Positions 14,919 through 27,913 of a stretch of DNA of 43,042 bases are shown here, piece by piece. Made by a program: the position numbers and the translations under genes. The stretch comes from a virus. The stretch is taken from IMG/VR virus record IMGVR_UViG_3300029590_000018; one strand, written 5' to 3'. How positions within the stretch are numbered: the first letter of the stretch is position 1; the number at the start of each line of letters is the position of its first letter. The notes under the pieces are model-generated. The model did no database searches, was not told the origin of the DNA, and saw only the letters and a program-made list of their open reading frames with translations.

Positions 14919-15051
14919 TCGTTGGCGCTTTGGCAGGCGTGGCGTTCCCCTGCATCTCTCGGGTTTCCCCTATCAATACCATCGGCGTGTGGCTGCCACG
15001 AAATTGACCACCTCAAAGCACCTTGCTTATCCTATAACAAGTATAGCCGCT

Positions 15052-19772: not shown

Positions 19773-19866
19773 ACGCTCACTCCCTTTCGTTTTGCTACCG
19801 GCCCCCGCCCCTTGGCCTTACATAGCAGACTTACCCGCCCAATTGGGCACTCCTACTATTTTTTTG

Positions 19867-19956
19867 AACGGACGGCTGGAGTCGAACCAGCGACCAAGGG
19901 TATTCAATCGCATATCCCTTCACGCGATAAAGCTCTGCCGACTGAGCTACGCCCGC
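19867..19956 (-). tRNA. Aberrant tRNA-like element (canonical acceptor, D and T arms; 40-nt non-canonical anticodon/variable region)
   Basis: Minus strand: GCGGGCG-TA-GCTCAGTCGGCAGAGC ... GCTGG-TTCGACT-CCAGC-CGTCCGT. There are 40 nt between the D and T stems instead of about 23, and I could not fold a 5-bp/7-nt anticodon arm. Confidence 0.55.
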
Positions 19957-20426
19957 ATTTGCTCGGCTTGCCGCTTAGATTGTCACGCCTCATGCGCGCT
20001 TGAAGCCCCGCAAGCATTTCAAGCGGCCACACATTGGCTATCGCAAGGGGGACGCATCCCCACGGCAGTTTTCAGCGGCCATTGTCATTTGCATGTGAGC
20101 CATGCCGGACGGTCTCACATTGTCCGGGCGCTACCCGGCCTCTAATACCACACCGCGCTGCGCCTTTTCATCAGCCACGCACTGTTTTTGCGGATTAACT
20201 GTCCGCCGCTATCCGGATAGCTTGTGCGTACTTAACTTCTCGCGCTTCCTCGCCCGCTTGTGTGGTTGGTGCGGCATTGCAGTCCTGCCCTGCTTTAGCG
20301 CTTCAGGGAAAGCCCCTGTCACTCGCTGTGGTCTCCTCACACTACGGGGTACCTATGCCGCATATATGTCCGGTTTCCACGGTTACCCCACTTGTTTATA
20401 CTCCGTTGGTGACTCCGTTTAGAGTT
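19957..20426 (-). ncRNA. Candidate large structured non-coding RNA between the two tRNA-type elements
   Basis: 470 nt with no minus-strand ORF of 60 aa or more. Many GC-rich local helices paired by eye, for example 19998-20004/20018-20024, 20048-52/20057-61, 20094-99/20114-19, 20124-28/20134-38, 20190-94/20202-06, 20304-08/20314-18 and 20346-51/20384-89. Confidence 0.45.
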
Positions 20427-20501
20427 TGGCGCAGGCGGCTGGAATCGAACCAGCACATACGGGAGTCAAAGTCCCGTGCCTTACCTTTTGGCTACACCCG
20501 C
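20427..20501 (-). tRNA. tRNA-Gln: tRNA-Gln (anticodon UUG), CCA encoded
   Basis: 75 nt: GCGGGTG-TA-GCC-AAAAGGTAA-GGC-A-CGGGA-CTTTGAC-TCCCG-TATGT-GCTGG-TTCGATT-CCAGC-CGCCTGC-G-CCA. Cloverleaf folded by hand, with a D-arm like bacterial tRNA-Gln. Confidence 0.9.
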
Positions 20502-23851: not shown

Positions 23852-24225
23852 CACATATCCCTCCATCTGCACCCGTCACAGGCGCCCTCGTGTGCTTGTT
23901 TGTACTTCCCGCAGTATTGGCACAGCTCGTTTTTCGTGGCGTGCAGTTCGCTTTGCTCCTCCTCCACCGCCACGGCCTTGGCAAACTGCGCCAGTCCCTC
24001 GCTCATCTTCTCGATCTTCGCATCCCGCCGCATGATGGTGTCCCGCAGGGCGTCGTTGGCCTGCAACAGCTCATCGATGTGCCGCTGCTGGTTCTCAATC
24101 AGGTCAGCGGCGTATCCCATCGCTTTTTCGATACATCCAAACTCGGCAATCAATGGACACGCTCCTTCGCATTTCTTATGCTGCTCGCAGCTCCGCAGCG
24201 CGGTCACGATTTCCTTTTGTGTCAT
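23851..24225 (-). CDS. Hypothetical coiled-coil / Cys-motif protein (about 124 aa)
   Basis: ATG at 24225 with RBS GGAGGA embedded in the end of the Dam gene. Confidence 0.55.
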   Translation of the reverse strand: MTQKEIVTALRSCEQHKKCEGACPLIAEFGCIEKAMGYAADLIENQQRHIDELLQANDALRDTIMRRDAKIEKMSEGLAQFAKAVAVEEEQSELHATKNELCQYCGKYKQAHEGACDGCRWRDM

Positions 24226-24668
24226 GTCATTCCTCCTCGCCAAATGGCAATCATGCTGGGAAACGGTGCCGTTCCCATCGGCTTTCCGTCCATCTCGAAT
24301 TTCAGCCGACCGCGCAGGAATCGGATCTCCGCCTTGCCCAGAATGTAGTCGTGAAAACTGGCACGGTCAGTCCGCGCCGGAATCAACAGCACCACCGTTG
24401 TCCCTGGTTTCTGTCCTTCGCGGTAACACTTCTCCGTCCACAGCCCGGTTTCCTTGCTTCCGTAGGGCGGGTTACAAAACACTGTTTCGCCCCCCCAATT
24501 TTGCCGCAAACCATCATCGTTTTGCGTGAAATACCGCGCACACTTGTGGTTTTCGTCACTGGATGCGACGTCCAGCGTGAAATGGAACTCCGCGTCCAGC
24601 TCATCAAAGAGCCTTTGCGGTGTTTCCCAGAAATTCTTATCGCTGGAAAACAAAGCGTCGTTCACCAT
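24222..24668 (-). CDS. Phage N6-adenine DNA methyltransferase (Dam-like)
   Basis: 148 aa with the catalytic NPPY motif (FCNPPYG) and the WETPQRLFDELD start typical of phage N-6-adenine methyltransferases. Confidence 0.85.
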   Translation of the reverse strand: MVNDALFSSDKNFWETPQRLFDELDAEFHFTLDVASSDENHKCARYFTQNDDGLRQNWGGETVFCNPPYGSKETGLWTEKCYREGQKPGTTVVLLIPARTDRASFHDYILGKAEIRFLRGRLKFEMDGKPMGTAPFPSMIAIWRGGMT

Positions 24669-24669
24669 G

Positions 24670-26328
24670 TTATTCCTCCTCCGGAAAATGTTTCTTCGTC
24701 ACCGCGATGGGGAACGGCTCGATCTCGCTTGCCCAGCGCGCCGTGCCTTTGCCGTGTATGCGTTCCCAAATCAGCGGATAGCCCGCGATGCCATCAAATA
24801 AGCTCCCCAGCGTTGCGCCCTCCGGCAGATACCGCGCCATGCGCCGCAGCATCCAGTTCCAGAAGGGCAGGCCAATGGAGTTACCCAGTGCCTTGTACTT
24901 TGGGCTGTCCGCGTCCTTGTGTTTCTTGCCCTTCTCATCCGTCCAGTCGCCAATGTCCACCCATCCGTCCGGGAACCCTTGCAGCCGTTCGCATTCCATC
25001 GGTGTCAATCGGCGCACCACCATGTTCTGCACCGGGTATGTCTCCGCGTCCTCCCGATAAGCGCAGTTCGCCTTTGCCCGCAGCGCGTGGCTCACGTCCT
25101 CACAAACCACCGCGTGGCTTACCTTGCTTTCTCCTGCGCGTAATGCGTTCTTCGTTTCGCTTTCTGCCCAGTTTTCTTCCATCGCGCTTTTGGGCTGGTA
25201 TAAAATCGCCCGCGCCGCGTCAGGGGTTACACCGCACACCAGCATATCGTTGTAGGCGTCCTGCCCATTGTAGCTCCCGGCATGAGCGCCTGGGGAAAGC
25301 GTACCCGTCACATCTTGGTATGTCAGCGGCACTTGATTTCCGCACATTACCCCGTGGCGGTCGCCGGCGGTCAGTGTAGGAGACGGGTCGCCCTCTTTGC
25401 CGATGCCAAGACCGTTGCCGCTGCCATCGTGGTTGCGGCTCTCTCCGCCGCCCTGCCATCTGGTGGCTTTGTCGTTGATGGGGATAGCCACAACCGGCTG
25501 GTTGCTCCCGCTCATGCCCGCCGCTGCGGTCAATGTGGGCACTCGGTCGTCTGTCCGCAGTTCTGCGCCGCCCTGCTGTGTAGCCATGCAGAAAATCGTC
25601 TGATCGTTCCCCGTGCCCAGCGTTCCGCTTTTCTCCGTCTGCACTAACGCACCTTTTCCTCCGCCGTCACACCCCCCCGGATGCGGACTGCATACGATGT
25701 TGGGAACTCTGTCGGCGCAGGGGCTTCCGTCCGCTCTTGCGGTGAGGCTCCTTGCGACTGCCGGATTAGCACCGCTTTCAGACGCGCCGGCAAATCCTTC
25801 CCCCGCCTCTCTGCTCTCCGCAATATCCCCTGACACGCTTTCGCGGTCAAATTGTATTTCGGATGCGGTGTCTCCTCCAAAATCTGCGACAACCGAGATA
25901 CGACGACGGCGTTGGGGCGCTCCCCAGTGTTGCGCGTCGTGAGTTCGCCACACCACGCTCCATCGTCCTCCCACTTCATCGTGATACCCTCCCCAGGTAG
26001 GCCAGCCCTTTTCAGGCACTTCAATACCGGGGGCTTCCGGCTCGACGATTTTGATGATCTCTTCGAGCACGGCTGCGAAGTCTTTTCCTTGGTTGCTGCT
26101 AAAGGCTCCGACCACGTTTTCCCACACGAGATACCGAGGTCTAACCATGTCACCTGTCCGTCCATTCCTTTTGTCCGCCTCCCTCATTTCTTTTACGATG
26201 CGTACCTGCTCCATAAACAGGCCGCTTCGCGCTCCCGCCAAACCGGCGCGTTTCCCGGCGATGGATAGATCCTGTCTAACAAGGTGAACCACCTGTAATA
26301 CACCAAACGGGTTCAATCTCTGCCCCAT
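24670..26328 (-). CDS. DNA (cytosine-5) methyltransferase, main ORF. Motif order (IV remnant)-VI-VIII-TRD-IX-X-I-II. Lacks the catalytic Pro-Cys.
   Basis: Motifs read directly: QDLSIAGKRAGL (post-PCQ), LVWENV (VI), PQRRRR (VIII), RRLTPMECERLQGFP (IX), ALGNSIGLP (X), then a C-terminal LGSLFDGIAGY (I) and ASEIEPFP (II). Confidence 0.8.
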   Translation of the reverse strand: MGQRLNPFGVLQVVHLVRQDLSIAGKRAGLAGARSGLFMEQVRIVKEMREADKRNGRTGDMVRPRYLVWENVVGAFSSNQGKDFAAVLEEIIKIVEPEAPGIEVPEKGWPTWGGYHDEVGGRWSVVWRTHDAQHWGAPQRRRRISVVADFGGDTASEIQFDRESVSGDIAESREAGEGFAGASESGANPAVARSLTARADGSPCADRVPNIVCSPHPGGCDGGGKGALVQTEKSGTLGTGNDQTIFCMATQQGGAELRTDDRVPTLTAAAGMSGSNQPVVAIPINDKATRWQGGGESRNHDGSGNGLGIGKEGDPSPTLTAGDRHGVMCGNQVPLTYQDVTGTLSPGAHAGSYNGQDAYNDMLVCGVTPDAARAILYQPKSAMEENWAESETKNALRAGESKVSHAVVCEDVSHALRAKANCAYREDAETYPVQNMVVRRLTPMECERLQGFPDGWVDIGDWTDEKGKKHKDADSPKYKALGNSIGLPFWNWMLRRMARYLPEGATLGSLFDGIAGYPLIWERIHGKGTARWASEIEPFPIAVTKKHFPEEE

Positions 26329-26359
26329 TTATTTTCGTAATATCGCCTAAATGTTTCAC
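26276..26359 (-). pseudogene. Out-of-frame 5' fragment of the C5-methyltransferase (motif III/IV up to the catalytic Cys), ending in TAG
   Basis: RBS AGGAGGTG, then GTG at 26359: VKHLGDITKINGAEIEPVWCITGGSPC-TAG. Removing TAGA (26278..26275) would fuse it in frame to QDLSIAG of the main ORF. Confidence 0.7.
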
Positions 26360-26371
26360 CTAAATCACCTC

Positions 26372-26647
26372 CTAATCTCCAAACACAACGCCGCACTCGT
26401 CTTTCAGCACATCCTTGATGTGCTTCCGCTTGATGCGGCCTTCGTTTATCTCCTCCGCCAGGTTCTCCAGGCACTCGTACAGATACGCGATGCTCTGCGT
26501 GTCACGGCTGTCCGCCGTCTCCTCTTGGACGTGCCAGCCGCATTTGTCCATCAGCACCATCGCCACCATGTCCATGTTCTCCCGTGTGCCTTGCAGCTTG
26601 CCACGCATAAAGATGCGGTCGTCCCTGCTCAAATGCTGCTTTGCCAT
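26372..26647 (-). CDS. Hypothetical protein (91 aa)
   Basis: ORF with RBS GGTGAGGT, in the operon between the PAPS-reductase-like gene and the methyltransferase. Confidence 0.6.
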   Translation of the reverse strand: MAKQHLSRDDRIFMRGKLQGTRENMDMVAMVLMDKCGWHVQEETADSRDTQSIAYLYECLENLAEEINEGRIKRKHIKDVLKDECGVVFGD

Positions 26648-26648
26648 G

Positions 26649-27722
26649 TCAATACCTCACCCCGATGTAGTCCAGCACCCGCGCATAACCAAGACCGTCT
26701 TTCGTGGGCTTCCACAGCCCGTCCGTGTCAAATGCCCCACCGCCGATGCAGAACGCATAGTGCTTCGGGTGCGTCAGTTTCATGCGTTCAAAACGGTTGA
26801 CGCCTTTTTCGAGGTGCGCTCCGAACGCGCAGAACATACAGCCCGTCCTCTGGCATCCCGTGCAGTGCAGTTTGCAGTCGATCAGCGTTTCCGCATAGTC
26901 GTTATCACCGTCACTGGCTACGATATCGCCGTAGACACTTGCGATAGGTAGCTCTCGGTCTACAATGAATCGCAGCACATCCTGTTCCGTCCAGAAACTC
27001 ATGGGCTTAGATAAGGGACGCCTTCCTTCAAAAGCGTTGCAGCCGGTGGCAGTCCACTTAATCATCCGAAGCCGACTTTCTTCCGCCATTATCGCTGTAG
27101 TTGGCACACGCTTTTCTTGATGATCATATCTGTGCATAGGCGATTTTTTCATCACCTTGCAGCAAGAATCGGAAATCAAAAATGGTGCAGCCAGCAAGAA
27201 GACCCACTTCTCGCAATTATAGGGAGACTTATTTCCGTCCTTGTCCAAGTATTCACCCCGTAGCCGTTGTGCGGATTTCCCGCCCGGATTTATTCTTGCG
27301 TTGCCGATATACGCGGCCACCTCTTTGCTCACGATGCTGTACCCGTACTTCGTCACCACCTGCCGAATGTTCATCTTCGGGCGCAGGCGTACAAGATTTA
27401 CAGTCACGCGGGGAAACTCCCTCCGCAGCCAGTCGGTGTACTCATTGACGAACTTCTGTATCTCCGGGTACTCCAACCCAGTGTTCACGAACACCAGATT
27501 CAACTCCCACGGCGGCGTCCTGAAGCTCGCCAGATACCGCGCCGCCAGATACGCCAGCACCGTGCTGTCCTTGCCGCCGGAGAAGCTGACGTAGCACTGC
27601 CCGCCCCATGCGGTGTACCATTCGTCCAGCTTTTCGTAGGTCAGTATCTCCTTGTCCTGCACGTCCAGCGCCATCAGTTTCTTCGCCGCCTCATTCGTCA
27701 GCGGCTGGTTTGTCGGCATCAT
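26649..27722 (-). CDS. PAPS reductase / PP-loop ATP-pyrophosphatase family protein (DndC/IbrA-like) with C-terminal Cys cluster
   Basis: SFSGGKDS PP-loop motif. C-terminal CTGCQRTGCMFC cluster. ATGATG at 27722 overlaps the upstream TGA. The 403-aa ORF-track extension overlaps the previous gene. Confidence 0.8.
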   Translation of the reverse strand: MMPTNQPLTNEAAKKLMALDVQDKEILTYEKLDEWYTAWGGQCYVSFSGGKDSTVLAYLAARYLASFRTPPWELNLVFVNTGLEYPEIQKFVNEYTDWLRREFPRVTVNLVRLRPKMNIRQVVTKYGYSIVSKEVAAYIGNARINPGGKSAQRLRGEYLDKDGNKSPYNCEKWVFLLAAPFLISDSCCKVMKKSPMHRYDHQEKRVPTTAIMAEESRLRMIKWTATGCNAFEGRRPLSKPMSFWTEQDVLRFIVDRELPIASVYGDIVASDGDNDYAETLIDCKLHCTGCQRTGCMFCAFGAHLEKGVNRFERMKLTHPKHYAFCIGGGAFDTDGLWKPTKDGLGYARVLDYIGVRY

Positions 27723-27913
27723 CACTCGCCATCCTCCAGACGCACAACCTCGTAGCAGCTGTAGCTGCCGCCGTTGCGGAAAGCGTGGCAGATCGCCGCA
27801 CGGACATTCTGATACTTCCGACCGGACAGCTGCGCCAACTCCGCCGTGGTCGTGCCCCACCAGCGGGGCAGACGGTATTTGTCCTGCGTCACGATCATGT
27901 ACACGGTGGTCAT
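27722..27913 (-). CDS. Hypothetical small protein, possible HTH (63 aa)
   Basis: ATG at 27913 with RBS GGGAGGTG. The TTAELAQLSGRKYQNVRAAI segment is HTH-like. Confidence 0.5.
   Translation of the reverse strand: MTTVYMIVTQDKYRLPRWWGTTTAELAQLSGRKYQNVRAAICHAFRNGGSYSCYEVVRLEDGE

Follow-up and report, generated by a model that had tools for sequence, protein, structure and literature searches.

A phage C5 cytosine methyltransferase circularly permuted between motifs II and III, with a conserved TAG interruption after the catalytic cysteine and a putative recoding site

The gene described here lies in a stretch of 43,042 nucleotides (nt) from the virus record IMGVR_UViG_3300029590_000018 (the whole stretch is called the window below) and occupies positions 24670 to 26359 of its minus strand. 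It encodes a predicted C5 cytosine methyltransferase that, judged from its sequence, is almost certainly circularly permuted: the module of motifs I and II, which binds S-adenosylmethionine (AdoMet), follows motif X, and the break separates motif II from motif III. TAG and one further base also interrupt the coding sequence immediately after the codon of the catalytic Cys, so that the N-terminal leader and the body of the enzyme are in different frames. The locus is best described as a phage C5 methyltransferase permuted between motifs II and III, whose leader and body frames are probably joined by programmed recoding at UGU_UAG_N. The chances seem about even that UGU-UAG-N is an undescribed bacterial or phage recoding signal (a +1 shift dependent on release factor 1 (RF1) without re-pairing in the P site, or a 4-nt bypass) and that the gene holds a second, independently selected protein in the +1 frame.

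All features of this gene are on the minus strand. The leader open reading frame (ORF; frame F1) consists of 27 codons from GTG at 26359 to TGT at 26279 (26279..26359). Its translation, VKHLGDITKINGAEIEPVWCITGGSPC, contains motif III (HLGDITKI) and the part of motif IV that ends with the catalytic Cys (GGSPC), and it is closed by TAG at 26278-26276. Direct reading of the sequence places the Shine-Dalgarno sequence of the leader, GGAGGTG, at 26366..26372, with a spacing of 6 nt to the GTG start, and the element GGAGGTGATTTAG-GTG is kept among related loci. The body (frame F2; 24673..26274) has 534 codons from the Gln of PCQ and is followed by the stop codon TAA at 24672-24670. It comprises QDLSIAG, motif VI (WENV, 26124-26113), motif VIII (PQRRRR, 25917-25900), a linker, the target recognition domain (TRD), motif IX (RRLTPMECERLQGFP, 25014-24970), motif X (ALGNSIGLP, 24891-24865), and the relocated module of motifs I and II, which BLASTP and phmmer place at 24697..24810 (motif I, LGSLFDGIAGYP, 24810-24775; motif II, WASEIEPFPIAVT, 24735-24697). 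Motifs VI (ENV), VIII (QxRxR), IX (RxLTxxE), and X (GN[SA]) were thus all found, and WENV, PQRRRR, the motif IX string, and ALGNSIGLP are invariant in the alignments. The window ORF scored 74.5 bits with Pfam PF00145 (cut-off 22), and the in-frame homologue P0005 scored 106.4 bits with TIGR00675 (cut-off 100.65). The ribosome-binding site, the GTG at 26359, and this inventory of motifs on the minus strand had been proposed in an earlier note on this DNA and stand as proposed. Two of its points need correction. It let the GTG ORF continue through QDLSIAGKRAGL; the leader in fact ends at TAG 26278-26276, and QDLS... is in the +1 frame. It also gave the TRD about 250 amino acids (aa); the gap from motif VIII to motif IX, inside which the TRD lies, is ~300 aa. 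A TRD of this length may, as the same note suggests, serve more than one specificity.

The putative recoding site reads GGT GGT TCA CCT TGT TAG A CAG (26272..26293) and is part of the stretch GGTGGTTCACCTTGTTAGACAGGATC, within 26300-26260. It consists, at its downstream end, of TGT (26281-26279), TAG (26278-26276), the extra base A (26275), and the Gln codon of PCQ (26274-26272). The leader frame supplies P-C and the +1 frame supplies Q-DLSIAG, with TAG+A between them; in-frame relatives read GGSPCQDLS. In terms of nucleotides, a 4-nt insert (cct tgt [taga] cag gat cta) puts QDLSIAGKRAGL… into the +1 frame, and the in-frame relatives have ccg tgc cag gat cta at the same place. The sole long ORF of the locus is 24670-26328 (552 aa, ATG start), and its first 18 residues, MGQRLNPFGVLQVVHLVR, are the leader read out of frame. 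This means that the nucleophilic Cys would be in one polypeptide with motifs VI and VIII only if recoding occurs.

The motif order of the window gene is III-IV-VI-VIII-linker-TRD-IX-X-I-II, not the canonical order from I to X. When it was compared by BLASTP with a canonical 615-aa relative from a Catenibacterium mitsuokai genome, residues 19-500 of the window protein matched residues 78-609 of the relative (E = 1e-65), and residues 506-550 matched residues 8-50 with 60% identity (E = 5e-11); the two blocks are swapped. A phmmer search of the PDB sequences with an intact relative gave the same picture in terms of M.HhaI: residues 549-590 aligned with M.HhaI residues 16-55, residues 4-89 with 58-136, residues 127-149 with 148-170, and residues 446-497 with 237-290. 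Since the tail ends at about residue 55 of M.HhaI and the leader begins at about residue 58, the break is located at residues 56/57, between motifs II and III. The string LFDGIAG…WASEIEPFP aligns with motifs I and II of both M.HhaI and the canonical relative, and in motif I of the window Ala replaces the last Gly of the relatives (FDGIGG). About six residues (YLPEGA) connect the helix after motif X to motif I, and the junction reads …RRMARYLPEGATLGSLFDG…. Canonical relatives carry …WSSEIEPFPIRVTTKRMPEVKHLGDV… unbroken at the N-terminus. With its new termini between motifs II and III and a fusion of the native C- and N-termini, the protein has the topology termed Class B in the work on engineered enzymes described below. 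The permuted order, the position of the break at the exact boundary of motifs II and III, and the contiguity of the motif II-III string in related enzymes had all been put forward in the earlier note; the pairwise comparison, with its two blocks in swapped order, and the alignments with M.HhaI and the canonical relatives bear them out.

The C-terminal unit would complete the Rossmann-like sheet of the fold, as suggested by the sequence alignment, by its conservation (pN/pS, the ratio of non-synonymous to synonymous differences, of 0.28), and by the published activity of engineered enzymes with the same topology. It should be mentioned, as a point on the other side, that an AlphaFold2 model of the in-frame homologue P0005, built on a 37-sequence alignment, had a mean pLDDT (predicted local distance difference test score) of 36 and was uninformative on the docking of the C-terminal unit. 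The docking test failed because the depth and diversity of the alignment were too low.

The permutation is a property of a large family. In all of the 120 best homologues motifs I and II were C-terminal, and the canonical order was seen in none of them; the permuted order is common to about 240 related loci. A 114-residue query spanning IX-X-I-II retrieved 716 clusters at 50% identity with E ≤ 1e-30, and in the best 150 of these 716 clusters the query was matched as one stretch at the C-terminus. Unbroken single-ORF versions exist in MT835513 and MT836051 (L002, 590 aa, and L004, 591 aa), and 120 further clusters were found around the intact MT836051 version. Close relatives come from human faecal viromes, and the cultured Faecalibacterium phages FP_Toutatis and Lelie have the same permuted order. 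The earlier note had left room for a misassembled or chimeric contig; as every close homologue has the permuted order, and so do two cultured phages and hundreds of independent assemblies, this is excluded. Two individual members of the family deserve mention. In the close homologue P0099 (907 aa), an intein in the catalytic domain is indicated by Hint, intein-splicing, and LAGLIDADG domains that separate motif VI from motif VIII. The copy of Oscillibacter sp. 1-3 (L248) has the recoding site, and its gene is interrupted just after ENV, within the 8 kb examined.

In a 2018 study, fourteen permutants of M.MpeI and seven of M.SssI were compared, and activity was by far the highest in those of Class B, whose N-terminus lies between motifs II and III (PMC5944983). 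The REBASE search by the same authors found that all 27 natural permuted C5 enzymes were cut in the variable region (PMC5944983), and a classification preprint updated in December 2025 lists two topologies only for 5-methylcytosine enzymes, C (canonical) and F (the Eco31I type) (bioRxiv 10.1101/2023.12.13.571470). The earlier note named no other C5 permutation than the M.BssHII type, and by both sources this type (BssHII/Eco31I) is the only one known in natural enzymes. The present family is a natural "Type B" permutation that is missing from the published REBASE surveys, and neither this permutation type nor the conserved interruption has been described before for natural enzymes of this class.

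The interruption itself is conserved. TAG and one base follow GGSPC in 32 of the 84 loci gathered by protein similarity, and 52 of the 84 are in frame. DNA pattern scans located the TAG+N site in at least 120 viral contigs, and eight GTDB species-representative genomes have it (Oscillospiraceae, Dysosmobacter, and the isolate Oscillibacter sp. 1-3). Taken together, the viral contigs with the insert number more than 150. The site was seen in permuted genes only, 27 codons from the start. Fifty-two distinct and widely differing leaders, for example VKHLGDITKINGAEIEPVWCITGGSPC, VKHYGDVTKIHGNEVEPVDCVIGGSPC, VIHLGDICKINGAEIEPVDCIIGGSPC, and VEHKGDITKLNGYELPAVDVVIGGSPC, all have 27 open codons, and the frame is open with a GTG start in 51 of them. 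In pairwise comparisons the leader had a pN/pS of 0.32 in F1, compared with 1.3-1.5 in the other two frames. Downstream, the values in TAG+N genes were 0.24 for the N-domain, 0.18 for the motif IX block, and 0.28 for the relocated I-II tail. Leader and body are both functional coding sequence, with the Cys in the leader and everything else in the body.

Conservation around the stop extends to the nucleotides. The codons before it are fixed as GGT GGT TCA CCT TGT in TAG+N genes, whereas in-frame relatives use GGC, GGC or GGA, AGC or TCG, CCG, and TGC or TGT about equally (Fisher p = 1e-7 and 0.006). TGT was present in 52 of 52 leaders, although the search pattern admitted TGC. A version of the pattern with TAA or TGA in place of TAG had no match in 2.9 million viral contigs. 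The base after TAG was A in 29, C in 18, and T in 4 of the 52 leaders, and G occurred in no genuine site. All 86 TAG+N genes start with GTG, whereas in-frame genes mostly start with ATG. Furthermore, a Shine-Dalgarno-like GGUGG is conserved 7 nt before UGU; in two lineages, which have no F2 GTG, the upstream Gly codons read GGAGG, the Shine-Dalgarno core. With high confidence, we regard the interruption as a selected feature and not an error. TAG is an ordinary stop in the window phage, the gene directly upstream ending in it, and the long minus-strand genes of the window (terminase, portal, capsid, tape measure, and tail) contain no in-frame TAG.

An upstream ORF of 91 aa (26357-26647, minus strand) shares the frame of the leader, and only TAG-GAG-GTG-ATT-TAG stands between the two. 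In the relative L249 the second TAG of this spacer is CAG (…EVIQVEH…). The shared frame probably reflects merely the ribosome-binding region.

The following course of events is proposed for the recoding. Translation would start at GTG, proceed through the 27-codon leader to ...GGSPC, and meet UAG. Ribosomes would pause there, their P site holding tRNA-Cys on UGU and their A site facing UAG; a fraction would change frame and the rest would terminate. Two routes are conceivable. In the first, the A site would be occluded, as in antizyme or Ty3, and a +1 shift would lead to reading of AGA, AGC, or AGU, giving PC-(R/S)-QDLS and the peptide …GGSPCRQDLSIAGK. In the second, UAGN would be passed by a 4-nt slide or bypass that brings the peptidyl-tRNA-Cys onto AGN, giving PCQDLS and the peptide …GGSPCQDLSIAGK; the central G:C pair would be kept, with a second pair if N is C or U. 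The second route would account both for the restriction to TAG and for a catalytic loop of ancestral length. The first has more precedent, and we do not choose between them. As for a purpose, recoding would probably secure a low, fixed output of a methylase that is potentially toxic, acts broadly, and has a long modular TRD, in a manner like that of prfB, and the weak GTG start fits such a purpose.

Several observations weigh against recoding. UGU cannot re-pair in the +1 frame (GUU; the anticodon of tRNA-Cys is GCA), unlike CUU_U of prfB, and GGUGG is spaced 7 nt from UGU, compared with 3 nt in prfB. A +1 shift would put Arg or Ser inside the near-invariant PCQ, and we know of no precedent for bypassing 4 nt when the take-off and landing codons do not match. 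Among 18 diverse sites compared with RNAalifold, no RNA structure was conserved downstream; only a weak 4-bp hairpin, GGUG-GUU-CACC, was detected directly upstream, with one compensatory change and two breaks, and it would sit within the ribosome during the shift. TAG+N and in-frame states are interspersed on the N-domain tree (14 changes on 126 tips), which could reflect recombination of a 5' cassette and not long-term maintenance. The trans-frame product is a predicted one. Lastly, 49 of the 52 leaders have an F2 start codon before Q, mostly GTG inside GGTGGT, so that termination followed by re-initiation could also supply the body.

Some further candidates were considered in this connection. 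A +1 slip at CCU_U, with the geometry of prfB and a 3-nt spacer (UCA), was rejected, since the product would lack the catalytic Cys and the Pro codon also occurs as CCC and CCG. Neither a suppressor nor a frameshift-suppressor tRNA was present in the window or in 60 related loci, and in the same set tRNA-Gln(TTG) genes had no consistent link to the site.

The re-initiation just mentioned leads to the serious rival of programmed recoding, which we nevertheless judge to be unlikely: a leader peptide released at UAG and a body re-initiated at the F2 GTG or TTG before Q would assemble non-covalently into a split enzyme. In the 49 leaders concerned the F2 start lies between the last F2 stop and Q, and the first Gly codon is GGT, which creates the GTG, in 46 of the 52. 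C5 methyltransferases are known to tolerate splitting, naturally in M.AquI and in engineered fragment pairs that complement each other, including pairs of the same permutant class (PMC5944983), and the permuted family itself tolerates it (e.g., L003). However, the lineages L163/L122 and L230 keep the site, with GGAGG, and have no F2 start before Q, and the internal GTG has no Shine-Dalgarno sequence at a usable distance. A plain split would also permit TAA or TGA, whereas TAG alone is seen, and breaking the chain within the catalytic loop, with the nucleophilic Cys as the last residue before the break, would seem structurally unfavourable.

It is rather improbable that the gene is inactivated or repurposed, i.e., that the 4-nt insert is a frameshift mutation and the product is the Cys-less 552-aa protein from ATG 26328, either non-functional or limited to binding of DNA or AdoMet. 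Gene callers do annotate this truncated product in 85 of the 120 best clusters, further frameshifts occur in the family (L003 and FP_Toutatis), and TAG+N is scattered on the tree. On the other hand, the leader of an inactivated gene would be free to decay, yet its start, its length, and its motif III/IV residues are kept over 52 diverged versions with the low pN/pS given above; the synonymous sites before the stop are frozen, and the stop is always TAG. Moreover, ATG 26328 has no Shine-Dalgarno sequence and is missing in the L059 subclade, where F2 has TGA TAG just upstream.

Reassignment of TAG to glutamine (code 15), by which PC-TAG would be read as PCQ, has a very small probability. Three related contigs do have an in-frame TAG for the CAG of PCQ with the remaining ORF intact, namely L254 (4937-4971), L255 (12147-12181), and L256 (256-290), and L254 (36% G+C), with several in-frame TAGs here and in other genes, looks TAG-to-Gln recoded. 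For the window, however, this code is contradicted by frame arithmetic: Gln at TAG leaves the frame broken, and F1 reaches TGA after 44 more codons. The use of TAG in the other window genes described above does not agree with it either, and the only tRNAs of the window are Thr(CGT) and Gln(TTG). Finally, although the window is a single assembly, comparison with other assemblies makes it next to negligible that misassembly, chimera, or sequencing error produced the swapped order and the frameshift, since many samples and laboratories have yielded both, in assemblies of GenBank, IMG/VR, ENA/Logan, and GTDB, with cultured phages carrying the order and an isolate genome carrying the insert.

Programmed recoding would concern the start of the gene; a second ORF is nested in its middle. 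This ORF of 173 aa (25644..26165, minus strand) is in the +1 frame and overlaps motifs VI-VIII and the linker. Its conserved C-terminal part includes LSQILE (25892-25875) and KYNLTAKACQGILRRAERRGKDLPARLKAVL (25859-25767), both on the minus strand, and the consensus is …LSQILE…KYYLS.KAC.GILRRA.RRGK.LP..L..AL. LSQILE and RRGK.LP keep fixed offsets in almost every one of about 238 family loci, and the motifs are also present in the canonical-order relatives of Streptococcus phage Javan191, phage NatCom_9291, and Catenibacterium. Among the relatives the ORF was located at 2598-3020 of L004, at 3001-3393 of L243, and in the +1 frame of the methyltransferase in L241 and L242. From 60 to 150 nt after PQRR, the nested frame had a pN/pS of 0.22-0.31 (pS about 0.5) and the main frame 1.3-2.1; upstream of that stretch the values are reversed, with the main frame constrained and the nested frame not. 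The ATG start of the nested ORF is kept in 144 of 151 versions. From these observations the ORF is read as a genuine overlapping gene.

As to its function, 5648 database proteins match the nested ORF, all of them unnamed. Profile searches of Pfam, NCBIfam, and PDB gave no family. In the AlphaFold2 prediction the N-terminal part is disordered and residues 86-137 form three helices with good confidence, and Foldseek of this model against PDB found nothing at E below 5. A homology of 'LSQILE…KYYLS' to the region after motif VIII of SPR-type methyltransferases was considered; no profile support for this was found. A single chain that leaves the main frame for the nested one behind motif VIII and returns at the poly-G tract described next was also considered but is not supported: there is no main-frame stop to force the shift, and LSQILE overlaps the strand beta-7 (ISVVADFGG), which is required by the fold.

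The poly-G tract (7 G; 25672..25678, minus strand) is the place where the nested frame (…SYAVRIRGG) meets the main frame (CDGGGKGALVQTEK…; CDGGGKG…); in the nested frame it reads G_GGG_GGU. Its length varies from 4 to 9 G among relatives, and single-base differences and a 70-nt insert occur there. As a result, in about 20 loci (e.g., L003) the half with TRD-IX-X-I-II is read on from the nested ORF, so that two overlapping ORFs together encode the enzyme. In the window, the 70-nt insert together with a compensating loss of 1 nt restores the single body ORF. The tract may be a site of phase variation or a -1 slippery site (G_GGG_GGU). The same junction was seen at about 3160-3200 of L003 and in L106. 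A comparable case, at another position, is that of FP_Toutatis (L001, MG711466; 2495-3906) and phage Lelie (PP479942), where a 1-nt difference lies in a G-rich run before motif VIII: motifs III-VI are fused to the nested-frame domain, and VIII-TRD-IX-X-I-II forms a second ORF. The record labels the two halves as two 'DNA-cytosine methyltransferase' genes.

The window has 55% G+C and represents a siphovirus-like phage with all genes on the minus strand, among them those for tail proteins, tape measure, major head, portal, and terminase, and for a DnaC-like loader. A Dam-type N6-adenine methyltransferase (24222..24668, minus strand; Pfam PF05869, E = 1.8e-27) starts 2 nt after the stop of the C5 gene, and a gene of the PAPS-reductase/PP-loop family (26649-27860, minus strand) lies upstream of it. 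The PAPS-reductase-like gene, the C5 gene, and the Dam-type methylase form a small DNA-modification cluster. Elsewhere, tRNA-Thr(CGT) (19866-19956, minus strand) is 91 nt long, about 16 nt over the usual length, and scored 39 bits on the Rfam tRNA model. It is separated from tRNA-Gln(TTG) (20427-20501) by about 470 nt that are apparently non-coding (19957-20426). A skipping-rope RNA (14925-15021, minus strand) is situated between head genes (Rfam RF02924, 48.3 bits; gathering score 36.7).

These results have several consequences. The most active permutation topology of the laboratory, thought to be absent in nature, is common in gut phages of Oscillospiraceae and Faecalibacterium, and the natural Type B family bears on the evolution of Rossmann folds by duplication and truncation. 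Class B topology was suggested to weaken the binding of the cofactor AdoMet (PMC5944983). The natural enzymes also offer scaffolds for split or permuted methyltransferase tools. If UGU_UAG_N is decoded as proposed, it would be a new type of programmed recoding, compact (about 20 nt), dependent on UAG, and without a slippery P-site codon. Automatic annotation truncates these genes, and 85 of the 120 best clusters lose the catalytic Cys in this way; predictions of phage methylomes that rely on the truncated annotations are therefore wrong. The nested ORF is a clear example of how the gene of a widespread enzyme can code in two frames.

When the system is compared with known ones, the canonical-order phage and ICE relatives (Streptococcus phage Javan191, phage NatCom_9291, and a Catenibacterium mitsuokai prophage) have 33-36% identity over motifs IV-X. 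They share the modular TRD (…LKIRSGCEGGGKG…, …GGNNQP…) and the nested +1-frame ORF with the window gene. They differ in that motifs I and II are N-terminal and contiguous with motif III (…SEIEPFPIRVTTKR.P.VKH.GD…), and none of them has the TAG+N site.

The interruption resembles the frameshift site of prfB in many respects: a leader of ~25 codons, an in-frame stop read by a single release factor, a body in +1, an upstream Shine-Dalgarno-like element, a P-site codon with a weak wobble U, and conservation at the nucleotide level. A short ORF closed by a stop with the body in +1, and nucleotide conservation beyond coding, are common to both, whereas re-pairing in the P site is not: prfB has CUU_UGA_C with re-pairing to UUU and a 3-nt spacer, and the present site has UGU_UAG_N, no re-pairing, and 7 nt. 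Nor is there at the window site any obvious logic of RF1 autoregulation. Translational bypassing, as in T4 gene 60 and the short stop hops of E. coli, is similar in that the take-off codon is directly before UAG and that skipping would restore the ancestral PCQ. The known hops, however, have matched take-off and landing codons and cover 5-50 nt, and no hop of 4 nt that leads from UGU to AGN has been described.

M.AquI is reportedly encoded as alpha and beta subunits by two overlapping ORFs. L003 and L087 are alike in this respect, with one of two overlapping ORFs for the catalytic half and the other for the TRD-IX-X(-I-II) half. M.AquI is not permuted, however, and the window has a single body ORF across that junction. 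In the plant enzyme DRM2, a eukaryotic C5 methyltransferase with rearranged motifs, weak sequence matches to the N-terminal block were obtained by phmmer. DRM2 differs in having motifs VI-X before I-V, and it belongs to an unrelated lineage with an RNA-directed eukaryotic context.

M.BssHII, M.Alw26I, M2.Eco31I, M.Esp3I, and M2.BsaI (zeta class or topology F) are likewise permuted C5 enzymes and fit the model of duplication and truncation. By the published definitions of topology F (PMC5944983; bioRxiv 10.1101/2023.12.13.571470), their break is in the variable region and IX-X precede I-VIII. In the window gene, in contrast, the N-terminus is at motif III, IX-X come after the TRD, and only motifs I and II have moved, so that both structural domains are cut differently. 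The engineered Class B permutants, such as cp62M.MpeI, have the same topology as the window gene, with the native C- and N-termini fused directly. They are, however, laboratory versions of CG-specific mollicute enzymes with short TRDs, whereas the window gene belongs to a natural and abundant phage family with a long modular TRD and a putative recoding site.

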